Shown here piece after piece: positions 14,653 through 45,657 of a stretch of DNA of 64,000 nucleotides. Numbering within the stretch: the first letter of the stretch is position 1; each line of letters opens with the position of its first letter. Made by a program: the position numbers and the translations under genes. Origin of the DNA: an uncultured delta proteobacterium (GTDB taxonomy: Bacteria > Desulfobacterota > Binatia > Binatales > Binataceae); the NCBI GenBank assembly GCA_963724765.1, contig CAVRVY010000001.1, forward strand, positions 224,001 through 288,000, given 5' to 3'. Below the pieces are notes generated by a model. The model was not told where the DNA came from and made no database searches. It worked only from the letters and a program-made list of their open reading frames with translations.

Positions 14653-14689
14653 CGGGATCCTTTGCAGTTCGGCCTGCGCTTTCTTGGCC

Positions 14690-15499: not shown

Positions 15500-15716
15500 A
15501 CAATTCGCTCCGGACGGTTTAAATCGAAATGCGCCTGATCCGCTATTTTGACTGTTGCTTTCTAATTGCCGTGTAGACTGAACGGCCTTCCTCTGCAAGG
15601 TGAGAGCGCCAGAGAGAAAATCCCTCACTGAAGCAGCCGGATAGACCGGTTGCACCGGAGTAAAAATCCGGCAGCAATAGCCCATTTGCCGTGGAACGGC
15701 AGAGGTGGGCGGAGGG

Positions 15717-22130: not shown

Positions 22131-22577
22131 ATGGCACTGCTGAGATTTTCACCCGATCTCGATCCGGTGAGTAATCTGCTCACATTGCAGACCGAATTGG
22201 AGCGTTTCCTGCGCAATCCCGCAATCAGGCTCGGCGTGTCGGGACCCGGCGATTTTCCGCCCTTGAACGTATTCGACGACGGGGAGGGAGTCGTCGTGAT
22301 GGCCGAGATACCCGGGATGGATCCAGAAAGCCTCAACGTCTCCGGACAGAGTCACACCCTGACAATCAAGGGTGAGCGCAAGCGCGAGACGGTCGGTGAC
22401 GCCACAGGGTACCACCGGCGCGAACGACCGTTCGGTGAGTTCTCGCGCTCCGTCCAACTCCCCGATGAACTCGATCTTGACAAGGCGGCCGCCAGATACG
22501 AGGCCGGGATGCTGACGGTCAGGGTGCCCAAGGCGGAGTCGGCAAAGCCGCGTCAGATCGCGGTGAACCCGGCTTAA
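22131..22577 (+). CDS. Hsp20/alpha-crystallin small heat-shock protein
   Basis: FPPLNV..AEIPG..LTIKGER..YHRRERPFGEFSRS..A.YEAGMLTV.VPK. Confidence 0.95.
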   Translation: MALLRFSPDLDPVSNLLTLQTELERFLRNPAIRLGVSGPGDFPPLNVFDDGEGVVVMAEIPGMDPESLNVSGQSHTLTIKGERKRETVGDATGYHRRERPFGEFSRSVQLPDELDLDKAAARYEAGMLTVRVPKAESAKPRQIAVNPA

Positions 22578-22626
22578 GACCATGAGGGCGAAGGATTCAA
22601 GGCGCCCTTAAAGGAGGAAACGGACA

Positions 22627-23025
22627 ATGACCGAACAGGAGATTGCCGCGAAGGAAAAGCAGCAGGTACCGGGCCAGGAGAAGACTCGCGCGGGCCGGTT
22701 CTTTCTGCCCGGCGTCGATATCTATGAGTTCGGCGATTCGATCAAGCTTTGGGTCGATATGCCGGGAGTGAAGGAGAGCGACGTCGAGGTAACGCTCAAG
22801 GAGGGGGTTCTTACTATCACTGGTACCGTGTCGACCGAGGCTTATGAGAAGCTGTCGCCGCTATACACTGAGTACAACGTCGGAAACTACTTCAGGCAGT
22901 TCGAATTGAACGAGGATGTGGACGACAAGCATATCGGGGCCTTGATGAGGAACGGAGTGCTCGAGCTAACGCTTCCCAAGGGCGAGCGTGCGCAGGCTCG
23001 CCGGATCGAGATCAAGGCGGGCTGA
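22627..23025 (+). CDS. Hsp20/alpha-crystallin small heat-shock protein
   Basis: P.VDIYE..DMPGV..GVLTI.G..YFRQF.L..NGVLELTLPK. Confidence 0.95.
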   Translation: MTEQEIAAKEKQQVPGQEKTRAGRFFLPGVDIYEFGDSIKLWVDMPGVKESDVEVTLKEGVLTITGTVSTEAYEKLSPLYTEYNVGNYFRQFELNEDVDDKHIGALMRNGVLELTLPKGERAQARRIEIKAG

Positions 23026-23049
23026 CGTCGAACGGAGGAATTTCGAGTG

Positions 23050-23730
23050 ATGGCGTGGAAGGACCCGTATGCCATCCTCGGCGTCGGGCGTGGCGCGCCG
23101 CTTTCAGAGATCAAGCGCGCCTACCGGAAGCTCGCTTTCAGCGCGCATCCCGACGTTGGCGACAATCCGGATGCGCAGCGCTTTCGGGAGGTCCACGAGG
23201 CCTACGAAACCCTGAGCGAGATGGAGCAACGGTGCCCGCGCAGAATCAAGGTCGTGCGGGCACCGGACCGCTCTGGCCACGCGGGGACGATGTACGCGGC
23301 GCCGCAAGGACGTCCCGAGCCGATTCGGCGGAGACCTCCTGTCGACGTAATCGGCGACTTCGGGACCGTAAGTCCGTCGGTCGGCGAGATCCTTGACCAT
23401 ATTGCGCAGAACTTCTTCGGTTTCCATCAAAAGAGCCATGGGTCGTGCCAGCGTCTGGGCGTCGAGATTGTGCTCGACACGCGCGAGGCTTTCTTCGGCG
23501 TTTCTATGCCGATCGAGGTGCCCGTATACGTGCGATGCGGCCGATGCGGGGGCGGTGGCGGGGAGTGGGCCGTGTGTCCGCTATGTCATGGATATGGGAT
23601 GATGGAGACCACTCATAGCATAAGGCTCGAGATTCCGCCCGAGGCCCGAAGTGGCGACAGCTATCAGATCGATCTGAGGAGGGCGGGAATCGAGAACCTG
23701 CTGCTCGACGTGACGATTGTCGTTGCGTGA
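23050..23730 (+). CDS. DnaJ-domain protein with partial zinc finger
   Basis: DPYAILGV..IKRAYRKLA..HPD..F.EV.EAYETL; CGRCGGGG and CPLCHGYG. Confidence 0.9.
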   Translation: MAWKDPYAILGVGRGAPLSEIKRAYRKLAFSAHPDVGDNPDAQRFREVHEAYETLSEMEQRCPRRIKVVRAPDRSGHAGTMYAAPQGRPEPIRRRPPVDVIGDFGTVSPSVGEILDHIAQNFFGFHQKSHGSCQRLGVEIVLDTREAFFGVSMPIEVPVYVRCGRCGGGGGEWAVCPLCHGYGMMETTHSIRLEIPPEARSGDSYQIDLRRAGIENLLLDVTIVVA

Positions 23731-23924
23731 GAAAGCGCCGTGCGGCTACCGCGAGGCGCGGCATCGGAGCCACGCGCATGACTCCTTACTTTCCAATATT
23801 GCGAGTCCGCTTAGCCATCCTCCGCCAGAGCCTCTACGTTAAGGTTGCATCGCAGTCCAAACGCCGGCGTCAATGGCAAAAAGGCTTTTATCGAAATTGC
23901 CTGACCCGCAGATAGGAGGACGCT

Positions 23925-24410
23925 ATGGCTTTTTTACGACCATGGGCTCCGCTTCGTGAGATGGAGGAATTCCGGCATACCGTCGATGAGATGCTGGAAC
24001 ACCTCAGAGGCAAGATCGGGTACCCGCTTGGAGGCGGGTCAGCCGCTCTGAAGCCGCCGATCGAGTCCTTTGTGGAAGAGGGAAGGCTGACGGTGCGCGT
24101 CGAGCTGCCCGGCCTCGACCCCAAGGACATCACGGTGAACGTGGTGGGCGACATGCTGACGATCCGCGCCTCGCGTCAGGAGGAGCACGAAACCAAGAAT
24201 CGCGATTTCCTTCATCGCGAGTTCAGATATGGTGCCATCGAACGCTTGATGACCCTACCCGAGGGCGTAAAGGCCGAAGACATCAAGGCAAGCTTCAGCA
24301 ATGGTTTGCTCCAGCTCACCATCCCAATGCCTGAGGAGACCGCGCCCAAGGAAGTGAAGGTTCACGTCGAGCACGCCCAATCGAAACCTGAGGGTGAGAA
24401 AACGGCCTGA
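23925..24410 (+). CDS. Hsp20/alpha-crystallin small heat-shock protein
   Basis: VRVELPG.DPKDI..LTIRASR..HREFRYG..ER..LPEGV..ASFSNGLLQLTIP; RBS AGGAGG. Confidence 0.95.
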   Translation: MAFLRPWAPLREMEEFRHTVDEMLEHLRGKIGYPLGGGSAALKPPIESFVEEGRLTVRVELPGLDPKDITVNVVGDMLTIRASRQEEHETKNRDFLHREFRYGAIERLMTLPEGVKAEDIKASFSNGLLQLTIPMPEETAPKEVKVHVEHAQSKPEGEKTA

Positions 24411-24465: not shown

Positions 24466-25476
24466 TCAACTGCTGGTGCCGCGCAACGAGTAGGAACTCA
24501 GAACGCGGGCGTAGTTGGAGCGCTGGAAGGCCGCCGGGTTGGGCACATTGCGCTGACTCATGCTGCCACACATCTGGCGAATGGCTTCGTACTCGTGCTC
24601 CTCCATCCATCTCAGGAGATCGCGCAAGACGGCGTCGAGATGATGGACGCCGTTGCTGAGCAGTGCCGAGGTCATCATCGTGACGCGCGCCCCAGCCATC
24701 ATGCCCTTCAGCACGTCTTGAGCGCTATGAACGCCGCCTGTGATCGCCAGGTCGGCGTCAACACGTCCGAAGATGATCGCGACCCAATGCAGCCTCAGCA
24801 GCAATTCCTCGGGGCGGCTCAGAGTCAGGCTGGGCGTGACTTCGAGCAGTTCGAGATCCAAATCCGGCTGATAGAAGCGATTGAACAGCACCAGCGCATT
24901 CGCGCCGGCGCAATCGAGTTGTTTCGCCATGTTTGGATGAGCACTGAAGAATGGGGAGAGCTTCACCGCGACGGGAATCCGTACACTTTGTTTTACCCCC
25001 CGAACCAGCTCGACGTATGCCCGCTCGACGTGGCCGGCGGTGAGTTCCGGGTCGGTCACAATCGAATAGAGGTTCAACTCGATGGCGTCGGCGCCCGCTT
25101 GTTCTATCTCGCGTGCATAGCGGATCCAACCGCCGGCTGAGACGCCATTGAGGCTGCCGATGACGGGAATCGAAACGCTCACCTTGGCCTTGCGAATCAG
25201 CTCCAGATAGCCATCGGGACCGAGGTTGTACGTCGTCAGGTCGGGAAAGTAGTTCAGCGACTCCGCGAAACTTTCAGCGCCGCGAAAGAGATCCGCGTCA
25301 AGCATCTCACTTTCCAACGTGAGCTGCTCTTCGAAGAGGGATGGCAATACGACGGCGGCGATTCCGTGATCTTCGAGATGCCGAATCTTGTCGAGTGAAT
25401 CGCACAGCGGCGACGCTGACGCAACGATGGGATTCCTCAAGGCGAGGCCCAGATACGTCGTCGTGAGGTCGATCAT
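24466..25476 (-). CDS. Dihydroorotate dehydrogenase-like FMN protein (PFOR-associated)
   Basis: Start [23 protein letters not shown] overlaps the PFOR stop (ATGA); [34 protein letters not shown]. Confidence 0.92.
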
Positions 25477-28400
25477 TGCCTGCCCCCTTTTGCCAGCTTG
25501 CCCGAGGCAGTCTCCGATTCGGTGGCAGATTGCGAGGACGGGATTGCCGCGCCGGTCATAGCGGCACGATTTGCGTATACGCGCCACTGGCGAGCGACGT
25601 CGTCCTGCGCCATCTGGAGCAACTCGCGCGCAGCTTCGGGATTGCTGCGCGCGAGCATCGTGTAGCGCGCTTCCTGATAGGCGTACTGCTTGAGCGGGAT
25701 GCTGGGCGCCTTCGAGTCGAGCTGAAAAGGGTTCTTGCCTTCTTTTCGCAGCGCCGGGTTGTAGCGCATAAGCGGCCAGTAGCCGGAGAGCATCGCGTTC
25801 TTCTGCTGGTTCAGGCCGAAGGCCATGTCGTAGCCGTGCGCGATGCAATGGCTATACGCGATGATCAGCGAGGCGCCGTCGTACGCTTCAGCCTCGAGCA
25901 AAGCCCGGACGGTGTGCGTATCGTTGCCGCCCATCGCCACGCGCGCGACGTAAACCGAGCCGTAGCTGATGGCCTCCATCGCGAGGTCCTTCTTGGCGGT
26001 CTGTTTGCCACCGGCGGCAAACTTCGCAACCGCGCCGCGCGGCGTGGATTTGGACATTTGCCCGCCCGTGTTCGAGTACACTTCAGTATCCAGCACCATC
26101 ACGTTCACGTTCATTCCGGAGGCGAGCACATGATCGAGTCCGCCAAACCCGATGTCATAGGCCCATCCGTCGCCGCCCACGAGCCAAACGCTCTTGCGCA
26201 CCAGCGCATCGGCAACCGCCATCAGGTCGCGCGCGTCGTTGGTTTCGAGACCTGCAATAACCCGCTTGACCTCGGCGACCCGCTGGCGCTGCGCCGCGAT
26301 GCCTGCCTCAGTCGATTGATCAGCTTCCAGGATCTCCGAGACGAGGCGCCCGCCGAGCTGACTGGAAAGACGCCGGATCAGCTCCCGCGCGTAGTCAAAC
26401 CGCTTGTCGAGCGCAAGCCTCATCCCGAGCCCGAACTCGGCATTGTCTTCGAACAAGGAATTTGACCACGCCGGCCCCCGGCCTTCGGCGTTCGAGGTGT
26501 AAGGCGTGGTCGGCAAATTGCCACCATATATAGAGGAGCATCCGGTCGCGTTCGCGATCAGCAACCGATCGCCGAAGAGTTGGGTGAGCAGTTTGATGTA
26601 GGGCGTCTCGCCGCATCCAGCGCACGCTCCGGAAAATTCGAACAGCGGTTCGAGCAGTTGCGCATCTTTGACTTGCGCGTGCACGAGACTGTCTCGATTG
26701 AACTCCGGCAGCGACAGGAAAAACTCCCAGTTCCTCGCCTCCGCGTCGCGAATTGGAGGCTGAGGCGACATGTTGATCGCCTTGTGCTGCACCTCGCTCT
26801 TGCTTTTGGCCGGGCACACTTCGACGCACAGGCGGCATCCGGTGCAGTCCTCGGGCGCCACTTGCAGCGTGTAACGCATCGCCTCGAGGCCGCGCCAGCG
26901 GGGCATCGCTGACTTGAAGGTCGCAGGCGCATCGTCGAGGTGACTGGGCCCGTATACCTTCGCGCGAATCACCGCATGGGGGCAGACCAGCACGCACTTC
27001 CCGCACTGGATGCACAGGTCTTGATCCCAGACCGGGATCTCCTGCGCGATGTTGAGCTTTTCCCATTTCGCCGTGCCGGTGGGAAAGGTGCCGTCGGGCG
27101 GCAGCGCGCTGGTGGGAACCGAATCACCGTAGCCGGCGATGAGAGCGCCGAGGACATCGCGAACGAAGGCCGGCGCGTGCGAGGGCACCGGAGCGAGAAT
27201 ATCGATCGCGCTGCTCGCCGTCGCCGGTATGGTGACCTCGTGCAGATGCGCAAGTGTAGTATCCACAGCGGCGAAGTTCCGTTGCACGATCGCTTCGCCA
27301 CGCTTACCGTATGTTTCCTGGATCGCCGATTTGATCGCCGCGATCGCCGCATCCGGCGGCAACACGCCGCTCACGGCAAAAAAGCACGTCTGCATGATCG
27401 TATTGATGCGGCCGCCCATGCCGGCCTGGCGCGCCACCTTGTACGCATCGATGACGAAGAAGCGAAGCTCCTTGTCGAGGATCTGCTGCTGCACCTTGCG
27501 CGGCAGATGGTTCCACACCTCGTCGGGCGCGTATGGCGCATTGAGAAGGAACGTCGCTCCCTGATCCGCCGCCGCGAGCACGTCCATCCGCTCGAGGAAG
27601 GCGAACTGATGGCATCCGATGAAGCTCGCCTTGCTGATCAGGTATGTCGAACGGATCGGGTCCGGCCCGAAGCGCAGATGCGACACCGTGACCGAGCCCG
27701 CCTTCTTCGAATCGTAGACGAAGTAACCCTGCGCGTAGCTGGGCGTGTTCTCGCCGATGATCACGATCGAGTTCTTGTTCGCACCCACGGTGCCGTCCGA
27801 TCCAAATCCATAGAAGAGCGCGCGCACAGTCAGTGGACTTTCAGTCGAAAACGCGGGGTCGAATGCGAGGCTGGAATGAGTCACGTCGTCGTGAATCCCC
27901 ACGGTGAAGTGATTCTTGGGAGTCTCCTTCCGGAGTTCATCGAAGACCGCCTTCACCATCGCGGGTGTGAATTCCTTTGATGACAGGCCGTATCGTCCTC
28001 CGATGATTCGCGGCCACCCACCATCGATGGTGCCTGCCGCCCACGCCTCGCTGAGCGCCGTCACGACATCGAGATAGAGCGGCTCGCCGCTGCCGCCGGG
28101 CTCCTTGGTGCGGTCCAGCACCGCTATCGCACGCGTCGTTCCTGGCAAAGCTGCCGCGAAAGCGGCGCTGTCGAACGGCCGAAACAATCGCACCTTGAGC
28201 AGGCCGACCTTTTCTCCCCCGGCGATGAGGCGTTCGATCGTCTCCTCGGCAGCGCCGGCGCCCGAGCCCATCAAGATGATGACCCGTTCCGCTCCGGGAT
28301 CCCCGACATAATCAAACAGTCGATATGCGCGGCCGGTCCGACGCGCGAAGCGATCCATGAGGTCCTGAACAATTGTCGGACATGCGCGATAGAAGGGATT

Positions 28401-29084
28401 AATGGCCTCGCGCGCCTGAAAAAAGACATCCGGGTTCTGCGCCGTCCCGCGCAGCATCGGTCGATCTGGACTGAGCGCGCGATCGCGATGCTGCCGGACG
28501 AACTTCGCATCGATGAGCGCACGCAGATCGTCGTCTGAGAGGGGATGGATCTTGTTGAGCTCATGCGAAGTGCGGAAGCCGTCGAAAAAATGCAGAAACG
28601 GGATCCGCGATTCGAGCGAAGCGGCATGCGCAATCAGGGCGAAGTCGTGTGCTTCCTGAACGGAATTGGAGGACAGCAAGCCGAAGCCAGTCGCGCGTGC
28701 CGCCATGACATCGCTGTGGTCGCCGAATATCGAAAGAGCGTGCGTCGCGATAGTCCGTGCCGCGACGTGGATGACGCACACGGTAAGCTCACCCGCGATT
28801 TTGTACATGTTGGGGATCATCAGAAGAAGGCCTTGCGAGGCGGTGAAAGTCGTGCCAAGGGCTCCCGCCTGCAATGCACCATGTAGCGCGCCGGCGGCTC
28901 CGCCTTCGCTCTGCATTTCGACCACCTTAGGCACGGTGCCGAAGATGTTCCTGCGAGCCTCATCGCTCCATTGATCGGCCCATTCACCCATCGGCGACGA
29001 CGGCGTGATGGGGTAGATCGCGATCACTTCACTCAAGCGGTAGGCAACAGATGCCGCTGCTTCGTTCCCGTCAAGGATTTCCAT
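25473..29084 (-). CDS. nifJ: Pyruvate:ferredoxin/flavodoxin oxidoreductase (homodimeric)
   Basis: 1203 aa; [67 protein letters not shown]. Confidence 0.98.
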
Positions 29085-29578: not shown

Positions 29579-29594
29579 CGGCACGATTTTGGCT
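29579..29594 (+). promoter_or_regulatory. Sigma-54 -24/-12 promoter candidate for the oxidase operon
   Basis: CGGCACGATTTTGGCT (GG-N10-GC), about 225 bp upstream of coxB. Confidence 0.6.
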
Positions 29595-29817: not shown

Positions 29818-30558
29818 GTGAACTCAGTGATTCTTGGGTGGCTCCCAGAAGACATTTCGACGTTCGGTCCGAACATCGATTCAATCCTCAAGCTGATCAT
29901 TTACGTGGTCGGCGTCGCATTCGTCTTGGCCGAGGGTACACTTTTGGCGTTCGTCATCTTGTACCGTCGCCGCGAGGGCGGACGCGCATCGTTTGTGCCT
30001 GGCGAATCGCTGCACGAGCTCGCATGGGTGCTGATCCCAGTCGTCATCGTCATCTTCTTCGATGTGGCGATCGACGTTCGGGCAAAGCCGGTCTGGGATC
30101 TGGTCAAGGAGCAAAGCCCTCCTCCGGGGCTGACTGTAAAGTTGGATGCGTTCCAGTTCGGATGGGAGTTCACGTATCCGGGCCCCGACGGCCAGTTCGG
30201 CACGCACGACTTGGTCCAAACAACGACTTTGACCGTTCCCACGGGCCAGGTGATTCGGTTGCTCATGACGTCGAAGGACGCGATCCACAGTTTCTACGTG
30301 CCGCAGTTACGGCTTAAACAGGACATCGTTCCCGGTCGGCAGATCCCTGCATGGTTCGAGGTAACGCGTCCCGGCAAATACGAAATCGCATGCTCCCAGC
30401 TTTGCGGGATCTCGCACTTCGCGATGAAGGGTATCCTGCGCGTTCTGACGCCCGCGGAGTATCAGCAATGGGTTAGCCAGCACTGGCCCAAGTCCGGCGC
30501 TGGGGCAGGTAAGAGCGCATCAAGTGCGCGATCATCCGCGAGCGGAACGGAGGGATAG
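29818..30558 (+). CDS. coxB: Cytochrome c oxidase subunit II (CuA)
   Basis: Two TM helices, FQFGWEFTYP, DAIHSF, CuA motif CSQLCGISHFAM. Confidence 0.95.
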   Translation: MNSVILGWLPEDISTFGPNIDSILKLIIYVVGVAFVLAEGTLLAFVILYRRREGGRASFVPGESLHELAWVLIPVVIVIFFDVAIDVRAKPVWDLVKEQSPPPGLTVKLDAFQFGWEFTYPGPDGQFGTHDLVQTTTLTVPTGQVIRLLMTSKDAIHSFYVPQLRLKQDIVPGRQIPAWFEVTRPGKYEIACSQLCGISHFAMKGILRVLTPAEYQQWVSQHWPKSGAGAGKSASSARSSASGTEG

Positions 30559-30561
30559 GCC

Positions 30562-32274
30562 ATGGCCGAGATCCAAGTCGCGCCAACCGCCGAGGCCCAT
30601 GAGAAGATGGGCTTTTGGCGAGCATATTTATTTTCTGTCGACCACAAGGTCATCGCCAAGCAGTACCTGTTTCTGGGCCTGTTCATGGGGTTTGTGGGCG
30701 TGGGCCTGTCGTACGTCTTCCGTTGGCAGCTCGCCTGGCCCGGCACCGCCGTCCCCGGCTGGGGGAAGGTAACCGCGGCACAATATTACGAACTCGTCAC
30801 GATGCACGGAACGATAATGGTCTTCTTCGTGGCGATGCCGATTCTGCTTGGCGCTTTCGGCAATTTCCTCATCCCGCTGATGATCGGCGCGCGCGACATG
30901 GCCTTCCCGCGGCTCAACATGGTCTCGTTCTGGACGATTTTCGTGGGCTCGGTACTCCTGCTTATTTCGTTTTTCGTACCTGGCGGCGCGTCGCGCGCGG
31001 GCTGGACCGACTACGTTCCATTGTCCGACGCCTCAAAGTATCTCCCAGGAAATTACTGGGGCGGAAACCTCTGGTTGATCGCCGTAGCGATCGATTTCGC
31101 TTCGGTCCTGATGGGCGGGATCAACTTTCTCACCACGGCAATCGCGATGCGCGCGCCGGGGATGACGATGTGGCGAATGCCGCTGTTGGTCTGGCAGGAG
31201 CTGGTGGCGAGCGTGTTGTTCATGCTGAGCGTCGGACCGCTCATCGCCGGCGTGGTGATGCTACTGTTTGACCGGATAGTGGGGACAGGTTTCTTCCTTC
31301 CGGAAAAGGGCGCCGATCCGCTGCTTTGGCAACACCTGTTCTGGTTCTTCGGCCATCCGGAGGTCTACGTAGTCGCCGTGCCGGGACTTGGGATCGTGAT
31401 GGAGATACTCCCCGTATTCAGCCGCAAGCCGATCTTTGGCTATCGCATGATCGTGTGGTCCACGATTGCTGCGGGTACCCTCAGCTTCATGGTGTGGGCA
31501 CACCATATGTTCGTGAGCGGGCTGGACCCGACGCTGGCGGCGCCTTTCAGCGCGACTACGATCGCGATTTCCATCCCGTTCGCGGTGATGCTGTTTGCGA
31601 TGATCGCGACGCTGTGGCGCGCTCAGATTAGGTTCTCAACGCCGATGCTGTTCGCGCTGGGCGCGCTGGCGAATTTCCTACTCGGCGGCGTAACCGGCAT
31701 TCCTCTGGGGACGGACGCCGCCGACATCTATCTGCACGACAGTTACTTTGTAATCGCCCATTTCCACAACACTCTCGTGCCGACCGCGGTCATCGCGGGA
31801 TTTGGCGGGATCTACTACTGGTTTCCGAAGATGTTCGGCCGCATGATGAACGAGACCTGGGGCAAAGTGCACTTCATCTTCACCTGGGTCGGCTTCAACT
31901 TGGTTTTCATTCCGCTCTTCCTCATCGGCTTGGGCGGCGGCCAGCGCCGAATGTACATGTTGAAGGCATATACTTACTACAAGCCGCTCCAGCCGCTGCA
32001 CGTGATTGCAACCATCGGCCTGCTTCTCATAATAGCCGGGCAGATTCCGTTCCTGGTGAACTTTTTCGTTAGCATGTTCCGCGGCAAACGGGCTGAAGCG
32101 AATCCGTGGCATGCCAACACGCTTGAATGGGCTACGGACTCCCCGCCACCGCATGAGAATTTCCATACCATTCCGACGGTCACGCGCGGACCATATGACT
32201 ATAGCGTGCCCGGGATGGAACAGGATTGGGCTCCGCAGAATGCAGAACCGGTGACCATCGCCGCGCGGAATTGA
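30562..32274 (+). CDS. coxA: Heme-copper oxidase subunit I, A1-type active site, K-channel residues substituted
   Basis: TMHG, RDMAFPRLN, WFFGHPEVY, VWAHHM, HDSYFVIAHFH, RR. Helix VIII reads SIPFAVMLFA instead of [10 protein letters not shown]. Confidence 0.96.
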   Translation: MAEIQVAPTAEAHEKMGFWRAYLFSVDHKVIAKQYLFLGLFMGFVGVGLSYVFRWQLAWPGTAVPGWGKVTAAQYYELVTMHGTIMVFFVAMPILLGAFGNFLIPLMIGARDMAFPRLNMVSFWTIFVGSVLLLISFFVPGGASRAGWTDYVPLSDASKYLPGNYWGGNLWLIAVAIDFASVLMGGINFLTTAIAMRAPGMTMWRMPLLVWQELVASVLFMLSVGPLIAGVVMLLFDRIVGTGFFLPEKGADPLLWQHLFWFFGHPEVYVVAVPGLGIVMEILPVFSRKPIFGYRMIVWSTIAAGTLSFMVWAHHMFVSGLDPTLAAPFSATTIAISIPFAVMLFAMIATLWRAQIRFSTPMLFALGALANFLLGGVTGIPLGTDAADIYLHDSYFVIAHFHNTLVPTAVIAGFGGIYYWFPKMFGRMMNETWGKVHFIFTWVGFNLVFIPLFLIGLGGGQRRMYMLKAYTYYKPLQPLHVIATIGLLLIIAGQIPFLVNFFVSMFRGKRAEANPWHANTLEWATDSPPPHENFHTIPTVTRGPYDYSVPGMEQDWAPQNAEPVTIAARN

Positions 32275-32335
32275 GGCGGCGTGCGATACTTTTACGCAAA
32301 GCCCGTGTGACAACAGCCAGGTAGACATAACGATC

Positions 32336-32950
32336 ATGGCAAACTCAGCCGTCGAAATCGTTCATCCTCTGCACGTGGACCAAAGCACTTTCGAGATCGG
32401 CAAGCTTGGAATGTGGGTCTTCCTTGCCGGGGAAACGATGCTCTTCGGCGGGCTTATGGGTTGCTATACCTTGTTGATGATCGGCCGGGGAGGCTGGGGA
32501 GCGGCCGGTGCGAATGTCGCTTGGCGCCTGGGAGGCATCAACACTCTGGTTCTGTTCACCAGCAGTCTGATTGCTGCGCTCGCGCAAGGTGCCGCGCGAG
32601 ATCGGGATTCAGCCGGTGTGAAGCGTTATCTGGGCGCCACCGCGGCCCTCGGTGTGCTCTTTTTGATAATCAAGGCCTTCGAGTACGCCAGCGATTTTCG
32701 CGAGGGTTTCACGCCGGTCGCGGGTCTTTTCTGGAGCTTCTACTACCTGATGACCGGGCTGCACGTGCTCCATCTGCTGGCTGGCGTCGTGGTTATCGTC
32801 GGGCTGCTTCTGTGGATTAGCCCGCGCACTCCCAGCGCCTTGGTAGAGCGCAAGCTCAAATATGTGTGCCTCTATTGGTATTTCGTCGAGACGGTCTGGG
32901 TTTTCCTGTTTGCGCTCGTCTATTTGACCCCCAGCCTTGGAGTAGGATGA
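32336..32950 (+). CDS. Oxidase subunit III family protein (first copy)
   Basis: KLGMWVFLAGE.MLF, NT..L.TSS, YYLMTGLHVLH, LYWYFVETVW. Confidence 0.92.
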   Translation: MANSAVEIVHPLHVDQSTFEIGKLGMWVFLAGETMLFGGLMGCYTLLMIGRGGWGAAGANVAWRLGGINTLVLFTSSLIAALAQGAARDRDSAGVKRYLGATAALGVLFLIIKAFEYASDFREGFTPVAGLFWSFYYLMTGLHVLHLLAGVVVIVGLLLWISPRTPSALVERKLKYVCLYWYFVETVWVFLFALVYLTPSLGVG

Positions 32951-33246
32951 GCACTTCGATGGAACAAACCAAACAAACCGATTTCGCGGCCGCAGACCCC
33001 CTGAAGACCTGGGGATTGCTAGTCGTTCTGTTGCTGGTTGGCGCCTTGGCAGTGGCGCTGGGCCTGCCTCGAGGCCTGGCGCTGTGGGTCATCTTTGCCG
33101 CCGCGATCGCAGAGGCCTATGTTATCGGCCGTTACTATATGCGCCTGAGATCCGAAGACGTGCTGATATACATCCTGGCATTGCTGCCGGTGGCGCTGGT
33201 CATCGTTCTCGCATTCGTGCTTGTTCCGGACATCGTGAGGCCTTAA
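32947..33246 (+). CDS. Oxidase subunit IV-like 3-TM protein
   Basis: Three hydrophobic segments; AEAYVIGRYYMRLR resembles the KA.LV..FMHL motif; ATGA overlap. Confidence 0.75.
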   Translation: MSTSMEQTKQTDFAAADPLKTWGLLVVLLLVGALAVALGLPRGLALWVIFAAAIAEAYVIGRYYMRLRSEDVLIYILALLPVALVIVLAFVLVPDIVRP

Positions 33247-33263
33247 GCGGGAGGGTTGACACT

Positions 33264-33902
33264 TTGGCTGCGGCAATTCCGCTTCGTTCAGTCCAGAGTC
33301 CAAAACGCCGTGCCGCCTTTGGCGGTGGCAGCGGTTCTGGTCCCATTGGGTCGCCAAGGAAAGCCGATCCGACGCTGGGCGTGCTGATCTTCATTGGCTC
33401 CGAGGTGATGCTGTTCGCTGGATTGATCAGCGCATTGCTGGTCTCACGCGCGTCGGCGGCATTTTGGCCGCCCTTAAACCAGCCCCGGCTCCCAGTCGCG
33501 ATGACGGGACTCAACACCGGCCTTCTTGTCCTGAGCGGGTTTACGATGTGGAGAGTGGTGCGGCTGCTGCGTCAGCATGACAGCAGGCGGGCGGCGCGCT
33601 GGATGACCGTGACATTCTTGCTCGGCGCCATGTTCCTCGCGATTCAGGGCAGTGAGTGGGCGCGGCTCATTCACTTCGGGCTGACGATGACCTCGAGTGT
33701 GTATGGAGGGATGTTCTATCTGATCGTGGGCGCCCATGCGCTTCATCTCGTTGCGGCGCTGGCTGTGCTGTCCTTCGTGACGGCGCGGGTCTGGCGCGGG
33801 CGCTACGAGTCGGATCTCCGCGGCATTGTGGCGTGTTCGGTCTATTGGTCGTTCGTGGTGGTTCTCTGGCCGATACTTTATGCGCTGGTTTACTTCGGTT
33901 AG
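33264..33902 (+). CDS. Oxidase subunit III family protein (second copy)
   Basis: LGVLIFIGSEVMLFAG, NTGLLVLSG, Q..EW, FYLIVGAHALH, YWSFV. TTG start after GGAGGG. Confidence 0.9.
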   Translation: MAAAIPLRSVQSPKRRAAFGGGSGSGPIGSPRKADPTLGVLIFIGSEVMLFAGLISALLVSRASAAFWPPLNQPRLPVAMTGLNTGLLVLSGFTMWRVVRLLRQHDSRRAARWMTVTFLLGAMFLAIQGSEWARLIHFGLTMTSSVYGGMFYLIVGAHALHLVAALAVLSFVTARVWRGRYESDLRGIVACSVYWSFVVVLWPILYALVYFG

Positions 33903-34209
33903 CGTCGGCGTCTCCGCGACTGCCGCCAGCCTGTTCTGGGCGCCCGGGGCCTACGCATGCCCGCTGTGTTTCGCGTCCTCGGGACCCGGCGTTTTGCGCG
34001 CCTATCTTGTGAGCGCGTTTTTCATGATAGGCCTCGCCTGGGCGGTGATCGGGGGGATATGGCTATATGCCGCCCGTACGTACTCAGAAGCCGCCGAACC
34101 AGGAGATGCAATCACACGCGTTGAAGCTCCTTGGATTCAGAGTGCCGCTGTCGATAACTGCGAGACGGAACAACTTAAGCCTGGTGTGATTCGGAGGAGG
34201 ACGAGATGA
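33880..34209 (+). CDS. Small membrane protein with CxxC after a signal-like segment
   Basis: AYA|CPLCF followed by one TM helix; overlaps both neighbours. Confidence 0.7.
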   Translation: MRWFTSVSVGVSATAASLFWAPGAYACPLCFASSGPGVLRAYLVSAFFMIGLAWAVIGGIWLYAARTYSEAAEPGDAITRVEAPWIQSAAVDNCETEQLKPGVIRRRTR

Positions 34210-34595
34210 CGAAGCTGCATTTACTTGGCGCGGGTTTGCTCGTGGCTGGGGCATTTATGGTGGCCGCCGTGAGACCGGCGTCCGCGGAGACCGTAACGGT
34301 CCAGATGTTCGACACGCCGGCAAAATTCGTTCCGGACCCCGTAAAGGTTAAGGTCGGCGATACCATAAAATGGGTGAACAAGGGCGAGACAGTTCACACC
34401 GCTACTACGGACCCGTCCACGGCGCCCGACCCAAGCTGGGCGTCGGTGCCGAAGGGGGCGGAGACGTTCGACTCGGGTTATCTGAACGCGGGGGAGGATT
34501 GGAGCTACACGTTTAAGGTTCCCGGGGTTTATCACTACTTCTGCACGACGCACGTAAAGGAAGGGATGAAAGGCGAAATCGACGTCGGGCAATAG
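34206..34595 (+). CDS. Plastocyanin/azurin-family type-1 copper protein
   Basis: Signal peptide; F.P..VKVKVGDTIKWVN..HT; YFCTTHVKEGMKG supplies the H/C/H/M ligands. Confidence 0.92.
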   Translation: MTKLHLLGAGLLVAGAFMVAAVRPASAETVTVQMFDTPAKFVPDPVKVKVGDTIKWVNKGETVHTATTDPSTAPDPSWASVPKGAETFDSGYLNAGEDWSYTFKVPGVYHYFCTTHVKEGMKGEIDVGQ

Positions 34596-34684
34596 CCCGC
34601 ATTCACCGGTTGTTTCGCTTCAAAGCGCGAGCTCCGGCTACGCGCGGTCTCGGCAGCCTGCAAGGTTTTCAGGGGGAGAGGCGA

Positions 34685-36283
34685 ATGAAGCGTCTAAATC
34701 ATCTTCTGGTCGCGGGCCTCGTGCTCTCGATCGCGCTGACGATGATCCCGCTGCGAAGCGGACGCGCGGATGAGTCATCGATCTCGAAGTCAACTTCCCC
34801 TTCTGATGATTCGGCGCCAAGCTCAGCGGCCGATCCAGCCAAGAGAAAGGCAGGCACGTACGAGCGGTTGCTTCGCGAGATCGATACGGAGCGCAGGCAT
34901 GAGGAGGAGGAAGAGCGCAAGCATGAGGAGGACGAGGCAGCGGAGCGCAAGCGTATTGAGGAACTGGAAAGGGAAGTCAGGGCGCTTCAGGAAAGCAAGC
35001 AGCAGCTCGCAACCCAAACGAACGAAAACCAGACGCAACTCGCTACCGTCCAGAAAACCATAAATTCCCAGCTCGGGCCCCTCGGTTTTGGCGATCGCAT
35101 AAACGCTTTTCTCGGCCAGCATAACTTCACGATGGTCGGAGACGCTTCCGTTGGGTACTACTACTCTCGTCAAGCGGGAACCAACGATCCGGTACTGGAG
35201 TTTCAAGTCAATCCGATGCTTAAAGTCGCCGATTGGCTTCAGTTTTACAGCGCTTTCGGCGCGGTAGCCGGCCCGGGCGGAATTTCCGACATGGGTCCAA
35301 CGCTTGCTAACATGCAGATCTTTCCGTTCGGGCACGAGTTTCCTCTGGAGCTGGTCGCCGGACTATTCGACATGCCCTTCGGCGACTTTTACGAGAACCA
35401 GGGCCCGCCTTGGGTTAATCCGTTCGTAACCGCGCCGCTGCTTTACGGCGCGGAAGCGATCGAGCCACCCGCCTCGCTGGGGTTGCAGGCTCGCAGTGGG
35501 ATCCAGTGGGGCGCTCTGGGCCAGGACGTTGACGCCACTGTGTGGGTGGACTCAGGCCCGAGTTTCGAATCGACGGCGGGTGTCATCGGCACGCCGGTAA
35601 TCGGTGAAATCCTGAACCCGCTTACCGGAACTAACATCGCCACCAACGGCAAGGGTTTCGGCGGTCGCTTCAGGCTGTTCCCAATACCGATCGATGCGAA
35701 TCTTGGACGCTTGGAGCTGGAGGCATCGACCTACAATGGCAAGTGGCTGGACGGGCTCTGGTACAATTCTTGGGGAGTGGGATATGCCTATCGCGTCGGA
35801 CCGTTCCGCACTCGAGGCGAGTGGGCGCAGACCTACCGCCAAATGCCCAGTCTTACGGGAGCGGCTGCGTATCCCGGTTGCTGCGGGCATGAGAACCGGG
35901 AAGGCTGGTATACAATGTTGGGTTACTTCCTATACGGAATTCCACATCCGTACCTCGGCGACTGGCTCGAGCCGAGATTCGACAAGACTGAATTCCTGGT
36001 GCGCTACTCCGGCGTGAACCAGCCCGCCGTCCTCACTAACGACATCGCGACTGAGCCAGTCCAGGGCTTCAGCGGATCGCCGTCGATCTACAGCCCGCAT
36101 GCACGCGAAGTAGCGCTGGCACTCGACTACTGGTTTCAGCCCAATATTGTCTGGCAGAACGAGGTTGACTTTGAACTGCCGCGAGCCGGTGGGACATTCT
36201 ACACCCTTGGTGCGCCGGCGAGCCCGGTGGGTGCCACCCCGAACGATGTCACGCTACTGACTCAATTGACAATTGGTTTCTGA
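34685..36283 (+). CDS. Putative outer-membrane beta-barrel (porin) with N-terminal coiled coil
   Basis: Signal peptide, E/R-rich coiled coil, alternating beta-strand pattern, terminal TQLTIGF; no CxxCH. Confidence 0.78.
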   Translation: MKRLNHLLVAGLVLSIALTMIPLRSGRADESSISKSTSPSDDSAPSSAADPAKRKAGTYERLLREIDTERRHEEEEERKHEEDEAAERKRIEELEREVRALQESKQQLATQTNENQTQLATVQKTINSQLGPLGFGDRINAFLGQHNFTMVGDASVGYYYSRQAGTNDPVLEFQVNPMLKVADWLQFYSAFGAVAGPGGISDMGPTLANMQIFPFGHEFPLELVAGLFDMPFGDFYENQGPPWVNPFVTAPLLYGAEAIEPPASLGLQARSGIQWGALGQDVDATVWVDSGPSFESTAGVIGTPVIGEILNPLTGTNIATNGKGFGGRFRLFPIPIDANLGRLELEASTYNGKWLDGLWYNSWGVGYAYRVGPFRTRGEWAQTYRQMPSLTGAAAYPGCCGHENREGWYTMLGYFLYGIPHPYLGDWLEPRFDKTEFLVRYSGVNQPAVLTNDIATEPVQGFSGSPSIYSPHAREVALALDYWFQPNIVWQNEVDFELPRAGGTFYTLGAPASPVGATPNDVTLLTQLTIGF

Positions 36284-36304: not shown

Positions 36305-36670
36305 ATGAAATTACCGATCGCTAAAGCCGCAATGATTTCGATGCTGCTGTTGGCCGGGGCCGTCGGCGCGCGCGCGGCGGATTCAGGGGCGCCCGCTGCA
36401 GCGAGCAACAACGCGCAGAAACCGGCTGATCCCCCGAAAGCGGCGAACCAGTATGGCGCCACAGATGAACAACAGCGGCAGCATCTTGAGCTATTTCGCG
36501 AAGGGCAGGCGTTGTGGCCGATCTATTGTAATCACTGTCACAATGCCCGAAATCCGGCCGAGTTTGCTCCGTATCAGTGGGATCAGATCATGATGCATAT
36601 GCGCACGATGGAGAACCTGCCGCCTCATGATCAAGATGCCATCCTGGAATATCTAAAGACGGCACGTTGA
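36305..36670 (+). CDS. Periplasmic monoheme cytochrome c
   Basis: Signal peptide; GQALW..YCNHCH; W..IMMHM; AILEYL. Confidence 0.9.
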   Translation: MKLPIAKAAMISMLLLAGAVGARAADSGAPAAASNNAQKPADPPKAANQYGATDEQQRQHLELFREGQALWPIYCNHCHNARNPAEFAPYQWDQIMMHMRTMENLPPHDQDAILEYLKTAR

Positions 36671-36739
36671 GGAGAGTTCCAAAACCCTCCAGCGTCGGAA
36701 CGATTGGCATCGCTCACTCGAGGGAGCGGCGAAACTGGG

Positions 36740-37669
36740 ATGTTTTCCCAGCGCGTCAACATGAAAGCCACGGCGATAGAAGAGGTAGCTCTGCGTGCCG
36801 CGCCATCGGTGGGCGAATACGCAACCGCCTATTTCGAATTGGCAAAGCCGCGCGTGCTCACGATGGTGCTTATCACCACGCTTGCGGGCTTCTACATGGG
36901 AAGCGGCGAGCAATTCGGGTTCGCGCAGGCGCTGAAGCTTGGCATTGGTACCGCATTGGCGGCCGGCGGAACGCTGGCGCTGAACGAATATACCGAGCGC
37001 GGCACGGACGCCCGGATGGAGCGGACGCGCCATCGGCCGCTGCCCTCGGGCCGCCTACGGCCGATCGAAGCGCTGATTTTCGGTGTCGTTACCGCCGTCG
37101 CCGGAATTTTCTATCTCTGGGTGGAAGTTAACCCGCTGAGCGCAATAGTTACCGGCGCGATAGCCGCGCTTTATCTGGGTGCATACACCCCGATGAAACG
37201 AATCACCTGGCTCTGCCACCTGATCGGCGCGGTTCCCGGCGCGCTGCCACCTGTGATCGGCTGGGCGGCGGCGCGCAACGGCCTGGGCGGCGAGCCGCTG
37301 GTGCTTTTCGCCATCATGTTCCTGTGGCAGGTGCCGCATTCGCTCTCGATCGCGCGGCTTTATCAGCGCGACTACGCGCGCGCCGGTATCCGCATGTTGC
37401 CGCAGCCCGGTCGCTACGGCGATCCCGCAAATTCACTGATGATCGCGGCCGCCGCGGCGCTGCTCGTGGTGGGGATGCTGCCCGCGCTGATGAGGTTCGC
37501 GGGACTTTTATATCTGCCGGTCGCCATTGTGCTTGGGGTGGTGATGCTATTTCAATGCGTAGGGCTTGTGGCGGGCGGCGCCACGGTTGGCGCGGCGCAG
37601 CGGGTCATGAAGCTCTCGCTCTTGTACCTCCCGGCCGTGCTGTTGGTGATGGTTCTCGACAAGCTCTGA
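36740..37669 (+). CDS. cyoE: Heme o synthase (protoheme IX farnesyltransferase)
   Basis: YFELAKPRV, LNEY.E...DARMERT.HRPLPSG, YTPMKR, GAVPGALPP.IGWAA, FLWQVPH, DYARAG. Confidence 0.94.
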   Translation: MFSQRVNMKATAIEEVALRAAPSVGEYATAYFELAKPRVLTMVLITTLAGFYMGSGEQFGFAQALKLGIGTALAAGGTLALNEYTERGTDARMERTRHRPLPSGRLRPIEALIFGVVTAVAGIFYLWVEVNPLSAIVTGAIAALYLGAYTPMKRITWLCHLIGAVPGALPPVIGWAAARNGLGGEPLVLFAIMFLWQVPHSLSIARLYQRDYARAGIRMLPQPGRYGDPANSLMIAAAAALLVVGMLPALMRFAGLLYLPVAIVLGVVMLFQCVGLVAGGATVGAAQRVMKLSLLYLPAVLLVMVLDKL

Positions 37670-41578: not shown

Positions 41579-42610
41579 ATGGCAAAGGGGCAAAGAAAAG
41601 CGGGGTCTGATAAGTCGGCCATCGTGGCCGCGCTGCCAAAGGCCTGCGCTGATGAACCAGCGGCGGTCGAGTTCATCGAATCATTGCGGTGGGGCGTGAC
41701 GGGCCCGTGCTGCCTGCATTGCGGCGACACCGATGTTTACAAAATGACAGACCGCAAGACTGGCCAGCGCAACAGGCGCTTTCTGTGGAAGTGTAACGGC
41801 TGCCAGAAGCAATACACCGTTCGCGTTGGCACCGTGATGGAAGATAGCCGAATTCCGCTGCGCCATTGGGCATACGCGCTGTGGAAATCCTGTTCATCGA
41901 AGAAGGGCGTCAGCGCGTTGCAGATCAAGCGCGAGACCGGACTGACCTATAAATCGGCGCTGTTCATGATGCATCGCATCCGCTTCGGTATGGCCGAAGA
42001 TTGGACCGGGCAACCCAAGCTGAGCGGGACCGTGGAAGCCGATGAAACCTACGTCGGCGGCAAGCCGCGAAACAAGCATCCGCAAGGGCGACCGGGACCA
42101 CGAAAGGGTTGGCAGGATAAAAAGACTGCGGTGGCCGCATTAGTTGAGCGTGGTGGCAAGATCCGCTCATTCGTCACTGTGAACGTGACTGCCGCGAACG
42201 TGGGTAAGATTCTCCAAGAGAACGTAACAACGGATTCGCACCTGATGACTGACAGCTCTCCGATCTACCGCAGCGGAATCGGAAAGCCATTTGCGAGCCA
42301 CGGCATGACCGACCATTCCAAGGGCGAGTACGCGAAGCCGGATGGCACACACAGCAATACGGTTGAATCCGCCTTCTCATTGCTCAAGCGCGGCATCTAT
42401 GGAACTTTCCACAACGTCAGCCGCAAACATTTGCATCGTTACGTCGCCGAGTTTGATTTCCGCTGGAACGCGCGAAAAGTGGACGATGGCGAGCGATTGG
42501 CGCGCGCGATCCGAAGCGCGGAAGGTAAGCGGCTGCGGTACAAGGAACCATTGGCGACTTTGCCTCCGACCCCCGCACAAGGCAGACCATTTGAAACATT
42601 GCGCGGATAA
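41579..42610 (+). CDS. IS1595-family transposase
   Basis: Zn ribbon CLHC..CNGC, KKGVSALQI.R, GTVEADETYVGG, LMTD, HSNTVESAFSLLKR, YVAEFDFRWN. Confidence 0.96.
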   Translation: MAKGQRKAGSDKSAIVAALPKACADEPAAVEFIESLRWGVTGPCCLHCGDTDVYKMTDRKTGQRNRRFLWKCNGCQKQYTVRVGTVMEDSRIPLRHWAYALWKSCSSKKGVSALQIKRETGLTYKSALFMMHRIRFGMAEDWTGQPKLSGTVEADETYVGGKPRNKHPQGRPGPRKGWQDKKTAVAALVERGGKIRSFVTVNVTAANVGKILQENVTTDSHLMTDSSPIYRSGIGKPFASHGMTDHSKGEYAKPDGTHSNTVESAFSLLKRGIYGTFHNVSRKHLHRYVAEFDFRWNARKVDDGERLARAIRSAEGKRLRYKEPLATLPPTPAQGRPFETLRG

Positions 42611-42627
42611 GCTGTCGAGCCAACAGG

Positions 42628-45600: not shown

Positions 45601-45657
45601 ATCGCGACAGTGGAAGGAGCAACCGCGAGCGTCAACCGAGTGAGCGTCCAAGAATGA
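42628..45657 (+). CDS. Type IIG (Eco57I-like) fused restriction endonuclease/N6-methyltransferase
   Basis: N-terminal PDY..VEAK nuclease; GVYYTP, LDMACGSGSFL, IFGVDID, IIGNPPY; TaqI-like C-terminus (LGILNS, EIDRLVYDLYGLT). Confidence 0.93.
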   Translation: MSKTIDQGKEEIAALCRYFTTNRREFNPGAKEAHIRQTLIDPFFEALGWDVRNKTMAAPQYREVIPEDSLDVEGQQKAPDYTFRVGTLPKFYVEAKKCGVNIGADSGPAFQLRRYGWSAKLGLSVLTNFEELAIYDCTARPRQSDKASNARIQFFRYDEYPDRWRELWDLFSREAVWSGAFDQYVASKRKRGTSEVDAEFLKEMESWRLALAGNIALRNKNLSLDDLNAAVQLTIDRVVFLRMAEDRGLEPYEQLLKLCERPGIYPRFIRGICRRADQKYNSGLFHFQKESGVSEDPDRITPKLATDDKIFKPILESLYFSHGSPYHFGVLPVEILGTVYERFLGKVIRLTAGHHARIEEKPEVRKAGGVYYTPAYIVDYIVKHTVAAQIEGRSPTQLAGEKDRAPFRVLDMACGSGSFLLSAYRCLLDYCLNWYIEHKPDNFRKAVYKDPRNGQWRLKIEEKKRILTTHIFGVDIDLQAVEVSKLSLLLKVLEGETDQSLSLSQLPFGDRALPNLADNIKCGNSLIGPDYFTDKLFLDPEEMKRVNPLDWKQRFPDTIKSGGFDCIIGNPPYLKIEHIVEGDRKYFSLGFASFMKRYDTYGLFVERSLVLLKPKGLFGMIIPSTILNNLSFSQLRKMLVELTSISSIVNLGGKVFQGVNNDTVILTFAKGKDPVGTTQILDVQKYGGGLATAAAIGTKDLSRAAAPPQYVFELRMSKAADSILAKMRSGGLALGEICSCFQGFVTGGNDAYIVDSKSIRDENLEKEVCKPAVFGDQVSRYGRPSPQGFVIYLTRDSNLDEFPNIKARLEPHKANLKTKREVKLGRQPWYSLHWPRVQENFERSPKILVQAIRNLALKRRIIATLDSRGLYADHTLNVLYTEHQEYDIIFVLGILNSALVNFLFSKKYIDINIKGVYLTEAPIPRINFSAPADRKRHDQMVTLVNSILGLHNEVAETKSAAQKAILQRQIDSTDAEIDRLVYDLYGLTAEEIATVEGATASVNRVSVQE

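Follow-up and report, generated by a model that had tools for sequence, protein, structure and literature searches.

An A1-type cytochrome oxidase lacking the K-channel residues in an uncultured Binataceae bacterium

Introduction

In the textbook scheme of A-family heme-copper oxidases, protons enter through two channels: the K channel serves the catalytic cycle's reductive half, and the D channel serves the oxidative half and proton pumping. The nearly dead K362M mutant is a cornerstone of this scheme. Here, we describe a natural oxidase of this family in which the K-channel residues have been lost. It is encoded by the coxA gene in a 64,000-nt stretch of DNA, hereafter the window, from an uncultured delta proteobacterium of the family Binataceae (assembly GCA_963724765.1, contig CAVRVY010000001.1, positions 224,001 to 288,000; G+C content, 58%). 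A natural lineage that has no K-channel rung in subunit I, yet keeps the other catalytic features, bears directly on the two-channel scheme; either the D channel serves both halves of the cycle, or another route exists. We regard the window enzyme as probably a working CuA-dependent A1-type O2 reductase with the D channel as its sole proton input, a reading drawn from its sequence and gene context.

The K-channel ladder is described as H96 and E101 of subunit II, followed by S365, K362, T359, and Y288 (PMC9687966); the bovine channel is given as E62 (subunit II)-K319-T316-Y244 (PMC6115622). According to the preprint of Degli Esposti et al., COX1 of acidophilic Fe(II) oxidisers and their non-acidophile relatives has hydrophobic residues in place of the lysine, the entry Glu of COX2 is replaced, and the D channel is kept (10.1101/2020.03.01.968255). 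Seven independent K-channel losses are reported among archaeal family A oxidases (PMC8239418). Natural A-family oxidases without the lysine are already described in these two sources, of 2020 and 2021, and the kind of enzyme pointed out in an earlier sequence-only reading of the window is not novel. On K-less oxidases of Binatia, Gemmatimonadota, and Verrucomicrobiota, no literature was found beyond the preprint and paper of Degli Esposti et al., whose supplementary lists of K-less COX1 may include such proteins. Oxidases of the B and C families are described as working and pumping with one input channel (PMC11214002). They keep an analogue of the K channel and have no D channel, whereas the window enzyme is the converse. 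The idea of a K-less oxidase is thus known; new here are the A1-type branch in Binatia, the E/Q relaxation in subunit II, and the genomes in which the K-less enzyme is the sole oxidase found.

K-channel residues of subunit I

The coxA product was compared with solved structures using phmmer. It aligned end to end with mycobacterial CtaD (7rh6_R; E 1.9e-130), with 'givsei' of 7rh6_R facing 'givmei' of the window protein, 'avptgikffnw' facing 'sipfavmlfam', and 'hfhy' facing 'hfhn'. Residues 252-370 aligned with residues 271-389 of R. sphaeroides subunit I (1m56_A); because 119 residues face 119 residues, the offset is 19. In R. sphaeroides numbering, M343 equals K362, F340 equals T359, A346 equals S365, M280 equals S299, Y269 equals Y288, and E267 equals E286. 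The substitutions T359F, K362M, S365A, and S299M, which the sequence-only reading had listed, are borne out by the formal alignments; the codon of M343 is ATG. An internal control was provided by the K362M mutant chain 3om3_A, which scored approximately 2 bits above otherwise identical R. sphaeroides chains in two phmmer searches (124.6 vs 122.6 bits and 384.9 vs 382.8 bits).

The remaining catalytic residues are present in the window protein, as that reading had also stated: the six His ligands (H82, H265, H314, H315, H400, and H402), E267, the cross-link Tyr Y269, N101, D112, and N119 of the D channel, and the Arg pair R462/R463. Of the K-channel ladder, nothing is left but its final Tyr and E67, the Glu of subunit II.

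In the Pereira/Sousa scheme, the A1 subtype is recognized by the cross-link Tyr and a Glu in helix VI, within the HPEVY motif. The window protein has both (Y269 and E267), with the cross-link predicted from sequence, and has D112, N101, N119, and E267 of the D channel. It departs from the subtype in the K channel, whose positions are held by A346, M343, F340, and M280. Membership of the heme-copper superfamily is indicated by PF00115, the six His ligands, and the fold. The AlphaFold model has a pTM of 0.81, with pLDDT of 79-89 in helix VIII. A Foldseek search gave TM-scores of 0.80-0.84 to subunit I of R. sphaeroides, P. denitrificans, mycobacteria, and cattle; the top match was the K362M structure 3om3, by a negligible margin. 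The protein scores 602.3 bits in the NCBIfam model CtaD_CoxA (TIGR02891), under the cut-off of 670.75.

Relative to the canonical A1 aa3 oxidases of R. sphaeroides, P. denitrificans, and mycobacteria (CtaD), the fold is shared (TM-score 0.81-0.84; 38-42% identity), as are the six His, the Glu and Tyr of HPEVY, the D channel, the Arg pair, CuA, and subunits III and IV. The window enzyme differs in its hydrophobic K-channel rungs, its two short subunit III genes, and its scores under the NCBIfam CtaD and CoxB cut-offs. With the R. sphaeroides K362M mutant (3om3), which is also its best-scoring R. sphaeroides phmmer chain, it shares Met at position 362. The mutant is a single change in a two-channel enzyme and is nearly inactive, whereas the window lineage is also changed at T359, S365, and S299, and in the subunit II Glu of the clade, and has been under long purifying selection.

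Conservation and selection across the clade

Conservation was assessed in the window protein and its 120 best relatives (63-95% identity; n = 121). F340 is invariant (121/121). At position 343 (K362), M occurs in 52 sequences, I in 34, and L in 35; at position 346 (S365), 96 have A, 17 have S, and 8 have C; and position 280 (S299) is L in 71, M in 25, Q in 21, F in 2, C in 1, and E in 1, and never Ser. The closest homologs therefore retain neither the Thr nor the Lys, which does not fit a strain-specific lesion. E267 and Y269 are each present in 121/121. Of the 121 sequences, 120-121 retain the His ligands, E267, Y269, and R462/R463, with Y at H314 in one; N101, D112, and N119 are kept in 119-120, the rest being alignment gaps. 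The replacement of HFHY by HFHN, another feature listed in the sequence-only reading, is true of the window protein but not of the clade: HFHN occurs in 36 of the 121 sequences, all within a subclade of at least 75% identity, Y stands there in 83, and F in 2.

The ratio of nonsynonymous to synonymous substitution rates (dN/dS) was 0.126, 0.143, and 0.123 between the window gene and two orthologs, each from another Binataceae genome. coxA is under purifying selection, and the loss of the K channel is a clade character, not a lesion. The suspicion of coordinated substitutions in an intact operon is thereby upheld: the substitutions are clade-wide, synteny is conserved, and dN/dS is 0.12-0.14.

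Forty-two conserved positions are specific to the clade. The only new ionisable residues among them are K33 and E213, which sequence position and general topology would put at the cytoplasmic ends of helix I and helix V; none of the 42 is a new ionisable residue in helices VI-IX. A compensating Lys near the lost one was considered and rejected: the only clade-specific Lys is K33, presumably where helix I starts on the cytoplasmic side. In or near helices VII-X, what the clade has specifically gained are the hydroxyls S337 and T404.

Entry Glu of subunit II

E67 of the window CoxB (codon 30016-30018) aligns with E101 of R. sphaeroides subunit II, a column marked in the CoxB alignment by the E101A mutant chain 6ci0_B. 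At loci whose subunit I holds the K-channel lysine, this residue is E without exception (39/39). Over 12 genes of the K-less clade, it is E in 4 and Q in 8; of the ten Binatia loci in this clade, 3 have E and 7 have Q. E is found in the window, and Q in the K-less paralog of the same genome and in the two nearest orthologs. Judged from these alignments, the entry Glu is no longer constrained in the clade, a co-ordinated relaxation in the second subunit.

Oxidase complement of the genomes

Near-identical proteins carry source names that put the host in Candidatus Binataceae / Binatus. Of the five COX1-family genes in the host genome (5.4 Mb, 97% complete), two are canonical and keep the lysine (PTGVKIF and PTGIKIF), two are K-less (the window gene and a paralog), and one is qNOR-like. 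The K-less paralog has PFAVIVF and HFHY; its identity to the window protein is 63-67% and varies with the alignment. Eleven genomes that hold the K-less gene were examined, and nine also carry lysine-holding oxidases. In the other two, the Binatia genomes G036 (99% complete) and G108 (94% complete), PF00115 matches no gene besides the K-less one, and each has a single COX2-family gene. No match to cytochrome bd was found in G036 or G108, and no NarI was found in G036. Neither alternative complex III (ACIII) nor a cupredoxin gene lies near the sole-oxidase gene in G036, and this neighbourhood is uninformative. In another genome, G128, 17 fragmentary COX1 matches are spread over several frames at three loci, which suggests that its other oxidase genes were assembled with frameshifts or many errors.

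Phylogeny and distribution of the lysine loss

An IQ-TREE phylogeny of 59 sequences puts the window protein in a group of 6 that is exclusive to Binatia (SH-aLRT 97) and nested in a K-less clade of 17 rows (SH-aLRT 100) that also includes Gemmatimonadales, Longimicrobiales, Myxococcota, Puniceicoccaceae, and one metagenome-assembled genome of Flavobacteriaceae. The K-less homologs form a well-supported clade that spans Binatia, Gemmatimonadota, Myxococcota, and Verrucomicrobiota. A second K-less clade (SH-aLRT 100), composed of Verrucomicrobiota, Acidobacteriota, Planctomycetota, Elusimicrobiota, and others, joins the first in the best tree with a weak support of 76.8. Binatia also supply the nearest relatives that keep the lysine (PSAIKTFNW, 52% identity).

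The sequence-only reading regarded the lysine as near-invariant in the A family, which does not stand, although the counts come from samples biased towards relatives of a K-less query. Among the matches listed with at most 55% identity to the window protein, the lysine is absent in 21 of 80 named genome loci. An alignment of 154 rows combined the query and three of its own paralogs with the 150 nearest representatives of 50%-identity clusters; K occurs in 89 rows, another residue in 61, and a gap in 4. On a tree of 124 full-length rows, the lysine state changes at least 10 times. A near-full-length match of the window type, with the motif checked, was found in 10 of 150 other Binatia genomes, and 9 further loci are of the sister type; these tallies take in G087, on which no claim rests.

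Two related patterns were seen. In the sister K-less clade (L100-L109, L006-L008, and L010), the motif P-[ILV]-A-E-M has a conserved Glu directly before the lost-lysine position, which could be a different solution to the same loss. In fused subunit I+III proteins of approximately 800-850 aa (P0150-P0260 group), the lysine position is held by Gln (PSGIQVF) in 16 of 22 sampled; these members keep Ser/Thr at T359 and Trp at W366 and belong to a separate large A-family group.

Gene cluster

Window translations, Pfam, and NCBIfam place coxA second in a co-directional cluster running from coxB to ctaB (Table 1). The coxB product has two N-terminal transmembrane (TM) helices, a complete CuA site (H...CSQLCGISHFAM), and no cytochrome c domain, and scores 136.1 bits in the NCBIfam CoxB model (TIGR02866), under the cut-off of 147.7. 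In the alignment, its CuA ligands H, C, C, H, and M match the R. sphaeroides subunit II columns, and the CuA site is intact.

The order coxB-coxA-cox3-cox4-cox3 is common to all K-less operons compared, and the duplicated cox3 is kept by synteny in loci of Binatia, Gemmatimonadales, Puniceicoccaceae, and Myxococcota. Among these operons, the genes for the cupredoxin, the porin-like protein, the cytochrome c, and ctaB are common only to the two nearest orthologous operons (G017 and G079). The cupredoxin has the Cu ligands H...C-x2-H-x4-M and is 79-80% identical in G017 and G079; it is likely the electron donor to CuA. The monohaem cytochrome c, whose gene directly follows the porin-like gene, is 60-67% identical in the same genomes, which keep the pair. 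The porin-like protein has no CxxCH heme motif in its translation and comes from a large, paralog-rich Binataceae family, some members of which have PF07396; among clusters that look alike, Porin_O_P occurs in 17-45% of the members, which serves as a lead only. Between the second cox3 and the cupredoxin gene lies a gene for a 127-aa membrane protein whose CPLC motif adjoins a TM helix and which may be a copper or thiol handling factor. ctaA (heme A synthase) is located elsewhere in the genome, outside the cluster.

Table 1. Positions in the window of the K-less oxidase genes, key residues of coxA, and accessory genes.
Feature	Position	Strand	Evidence or remark
coxB, subunit II, 246 aa	29818..30558	+	Pfam COX2 E 1.9e-16
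coxA, K-less A1-type subunit I, 570 aa	30562..32274	+	Open frame, ATG start; Pfam COX1 E 7.9e-140; best solved relative 7rh6_R
D-channel entry N101, D112, N119 (= N121, D132, N139)	30862..30918	+	
HPEVY motif: CuB ligand H265, A1-type Glu E267 (= E286), cross-link Tyr Y269 (= Y288)	31354..31368	+	
M280 (= S299, lower K channel)	31399..31401	+	Alignments
Helix VIII K-channel rungs	31570..31599	+	Alignments; codon check
S337 (canonical Ala)	31570..31572	+	
F340 (= T359)	31579..31581	+	
M343 (= K362), codon ATG	31588..31590	+	
A346 (= S365)	31597..31599	+	
N403, HFHN replacing HFHY	31768..31770	+	
First subunit III-like gene, 204 aa	32336..32950	+	Pfam COX3 E 5.3e-13; after coxA in all K-less operons compared
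Subunit IV-like gene	32866..33246 (longest ORF; real start probably near 32944)	+	Pfam COX4_pro E 1.6e-7, residues 47-115; synteny
Second subunit III-like gene	33084..33902 (longest ORF; real start probably near 33250)	+	Pfam COX3 E 1.3e-21, residues 98-271
127-aa membrane protein, CPLC motif	33826..34209	+	No Pfam or NCBIfam match; 62-66% identity in G017 and G079 operons
Periplasmic type-1 cupredoxin, 129 aa, signal peptide	34206..34595	+	Pfam Copper-bind E 1.9e-12
Porin-like outer-membrane protein	34610..36283	+	Signal peptide, N-terminal coiled coil, beta-rich domain with terminal Phe
Secreted monohaem cytochrome c, 121 aa, CNHCH motif	36305..36670	+	Motif read from translation; no Pfam or NCBIfam match
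ctaB/cyoE, heme O synthase	36704..37669	+	NCBIfam TIGR01473 234.9 bits, above cut-off 210.3

The cluster also resembles the coxMNOP-type operons of Bradyrhizobium and Pseudomonas (COX subtype a-III), described with the order II-I-III-III (PMC5492768). The window operon has this order, with the subunit IV-like gene between the two subunit III-like genes, and subunit I of Pseudomonas and Rhodocyclaceae falls in the same broad part of the tree as the window protein. The coxMNOP subunit I differs in keeping the lysine (L049 and the Pseudomonas locus L064). Pseudomonas CoxM is described as carrying c-type heme domains (PMC5492768), whereas the window CoxB has CuA only.

Proton supply and function

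The reading we favour is that of an O2 reductase fed through the D channel. The K pathway would have been lost in evolution, with all rungs below the active-site Tyr now hydrophobic (S365A, K362M, T359F, and S299M). O2 would still be reduced to water, and both chemical and pumped protons would enter through the intact D pathway (D112, N101, N119, and E267). A carrier in the periplasm would deliver electrons via CuA; the probable candidates are two products of the downstream genes, the cupredoxin and the monohaem cytochrome c. O2 as the substrate, proton supply by the D channel only, proton pumping, and this choice of donor are the most likely assignments on the sequence data. An aerobic chain with ACIII and complex IV is reported to be encoded in Binatota (PMC8262859), and O2 chemistry in the superfamily is said to need the Tyr cofactor that NO reductases (NORs) lack (PMC11214002). 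The genomes with a sole oxidase, the aerobic Binatota, and the conserved O2-reductase features together lead to the reading as a respiratory O2 reductase. Precedent comes from the K-less COX of Fe(II) oxidisers and relatives, which is proposed to keep the D channel (10.1101/2020.03.01.968255). The sequence-only reading had proposed a specialised enzyme, such as a D-channel-only oxidase, a peroxidase, or an N-oxide reductase. The first of these remains the best reading; the other two are unsupported, given the O2-reductase active site and the two genomes in which this is the sole oxidase. A wider proposal, that a multi-phylum A1 clade runs the whole cycle and pumping on the D channel alone and that its enzyme is the sole respiratory oxidase of some Binatia, is put forward tentatively and is less likely true than false in our estimate. 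If this proposal is true, A-family oxidases can do without the K channel, and with the clade one could ask in a natural setting why the canonical enzymes require two channels. The Ser gained in parallel at positions 337 and 308 could then be part of the rewiring.

Several points weigh against a supply by the D channel alone. K-channel mutants of canonical enzymes reportedly have hardly any turnover, since their oxidised site is prevented from being reduced, and simulations are reported to argue that, in the reductive phase, the site is beyond the D channel's reach (PMC6115622). Within the D channel itself, S201 is V in the window protein and F or V in four sampled representatives of the clade. 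The K-less enzyme could be accessory in the nine of 11 holder genomes with lysine-holding oxidases, and its sole-oxidase status is based on two metagenome-assembled genomes (G036 and G108). A hidden alternative proton path may also exist.

Such a path is the substance of the strongest rival. In it, the enzyme reduces O2 and takes the protons of the reductive half by another route, either a path rebuilt near the old K channel with hydroxyls that K-less clades have gained (S337 and S308) or uptake from the periplasm, as in cNOR. Since K-channel mutants stall and the D channel is out of contact with the site in the reductive phase by simulation (PMC6115622), this is a serious rival, even though we consider it rather unlikely. 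Ser stands at position 337 (canonical Ala) and at position 308 (canonical Gly) in four or five K-less clades that are independent of one another, and in independent contrasts, S337 accompanies K loss in approximately 3 of 7 pairs and never the reverse. The sign test for S337 is nevertheless not significant (median p 0.25; 7 independent pairs), nor is the covariation of K loss with S337, S308, S299, and other positions in the same 7 pairs. Below S337, the face of helix VIII is F, M, and A, which leaves no continuous polar ladder to the cytoplasm in the sequence, and the lack of new ionisable residues in helices VI-IX also speaks against another route. Periplasmic uptake, if true, would mean lower energy conservation.

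A second alternative concerns physiology and is compatible with the D-channel-only reading: the K-less oxidase might belong to a rus-like module and act as the sink for electrons from an inorganic donor, e.g., Fe(II), delivered via cytochrome c and the cupredoxin, as in Acidithiobacillus. We hold this to be unlikely. It draws on the cupredoxin, secreted cytochrome c, porin-like protein, and ctaB encoded after the cox genes and kept in the two nearest orthologous operons. However, the porin-like protein has no heme motif and is part of a large general porin family of Binataceae, and the remaining K-less operons in the comparison (G036, G108, and type 2 loci) do not have the accessory genes. The window oxidase and the rus-like COX are alike in the hydrophobic residue at the lysine position and the retained D channel, as well as in the cupredoxin and cytochrome c within the cluster, the duplicated COX3, and ctaA located elsewhere; the Acidithiobacillus CoxA is likened here by its published description and gene content. 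At the entry Glu the picture is mixed, with Q in 8 of 12 clade genes and E in the window. They differ in type: the rus-like COX is classed as A2, a label that does not fit the window protein because its helix VI Glu is present, as in A1. The window's own subunit II still has the Glu, and the host is a Binataceae bacterium of neutral soil.

A membrane peroxidase supplied by cytochrome c or the cupredoxin, or a scavenger of peroxide, is quite improbable. The K362M mutant reportedly retains H2O2-driven turnover, the residue pattern of the window protein mimics that mutant, whose structure is the top fold match by a hair, and a gene for an O2-sensitive pyruvate:ferredoxin oxidoreductase (PFOR) adjoins the operon. 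Against this, the enzyme is the sole heme-copper oxidase in G036 and G108, where a bd oxidase was not found, and a full D channel, the pumping apparatus, and two subunit III genes under purifying selection go beyond the needs of a scavenger.

Less probable still is an NO or N2O reductase derived from an oxidase. NORs are reported to have arisen repeatedly from oxygen reductases, and new NOR families to have altered metal ligands or active sites and to have lost the Tyr (PMC11214002). The host genome has the qNOR-like gene, so N-oxide metabolism is present in the genome. The coxA product shows neither the loss of the Tyr nor altered CuB/FeB ligands; 120-121/121 sequences retain the cross-link Tyr and all three His of CuB, and CuA is intact. 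A decaying or inactive paralog, suggested by the two coexisting canonical oxidases of the host genome and by scores under the NCBIfam equivalog cut-offs, is hardly credible in view of dN/dS of 0.12-0.14, ligands kept in 120-121/121 across 63-95% identity, an operon conserved across phyla, and the sole-oxidase status in two genomes.

The D-channel-only reading can be put to experiment because a member of the clade occurs in Puniceicoccaceae bacterium K14 (L009, of type 2), likely an isolate. The window oxidase is a good experimental handle on an old mechanistic question.

Regulation and neighbouring genes

No RNA dataset was among the matches listed for 29818-34595; these were only DNA runs from soil, peat, sediment, and wetland, with partial coverage. 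A scan for promoters and terminators gave counts at the level of shuffled sequence. A putative sigma-54 promoter (GG-N10-GC) at 29579-29594, 225 nt upstream of coxB, was rejected, as such matches in the window occur at the rate of chance (30 vs 29.6 expected). In the upstream regions of five other K-less coxB genes, no sigma-54 site was found in G017 or G079, and G036 gave only a loose match. Sigma-54 activator paralogs, 55% identical, lie near both K-less operons of the genome, at 19091-20593 (-) in the window and at 13392-14921 (+) in L086.

Genes for a single-polypeptide PFOR (TIGR02176, 1802 bits; 25473-29084 (-)) and a dihydroorotate dehydrogenase-like protein (24466-25848 (-)) are divergent from the oxidase operon; a usually oxygen-sensitive PFOR thus sits beside a terminal oxidase operon. 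Upstream of the PFOR gene are three Hsp20-family small heat-shock genes and a DnaJ-like gene (22131-24410 (+)). An IS21-family transposase gene is located at 15705-17216 (+). The region is also flanked, within 41579-45657 (+), by an ISXO2-like ORF that looks like a transposase and a 1009-aa putative type IIG restriction-modification enzyme, both read from translations.

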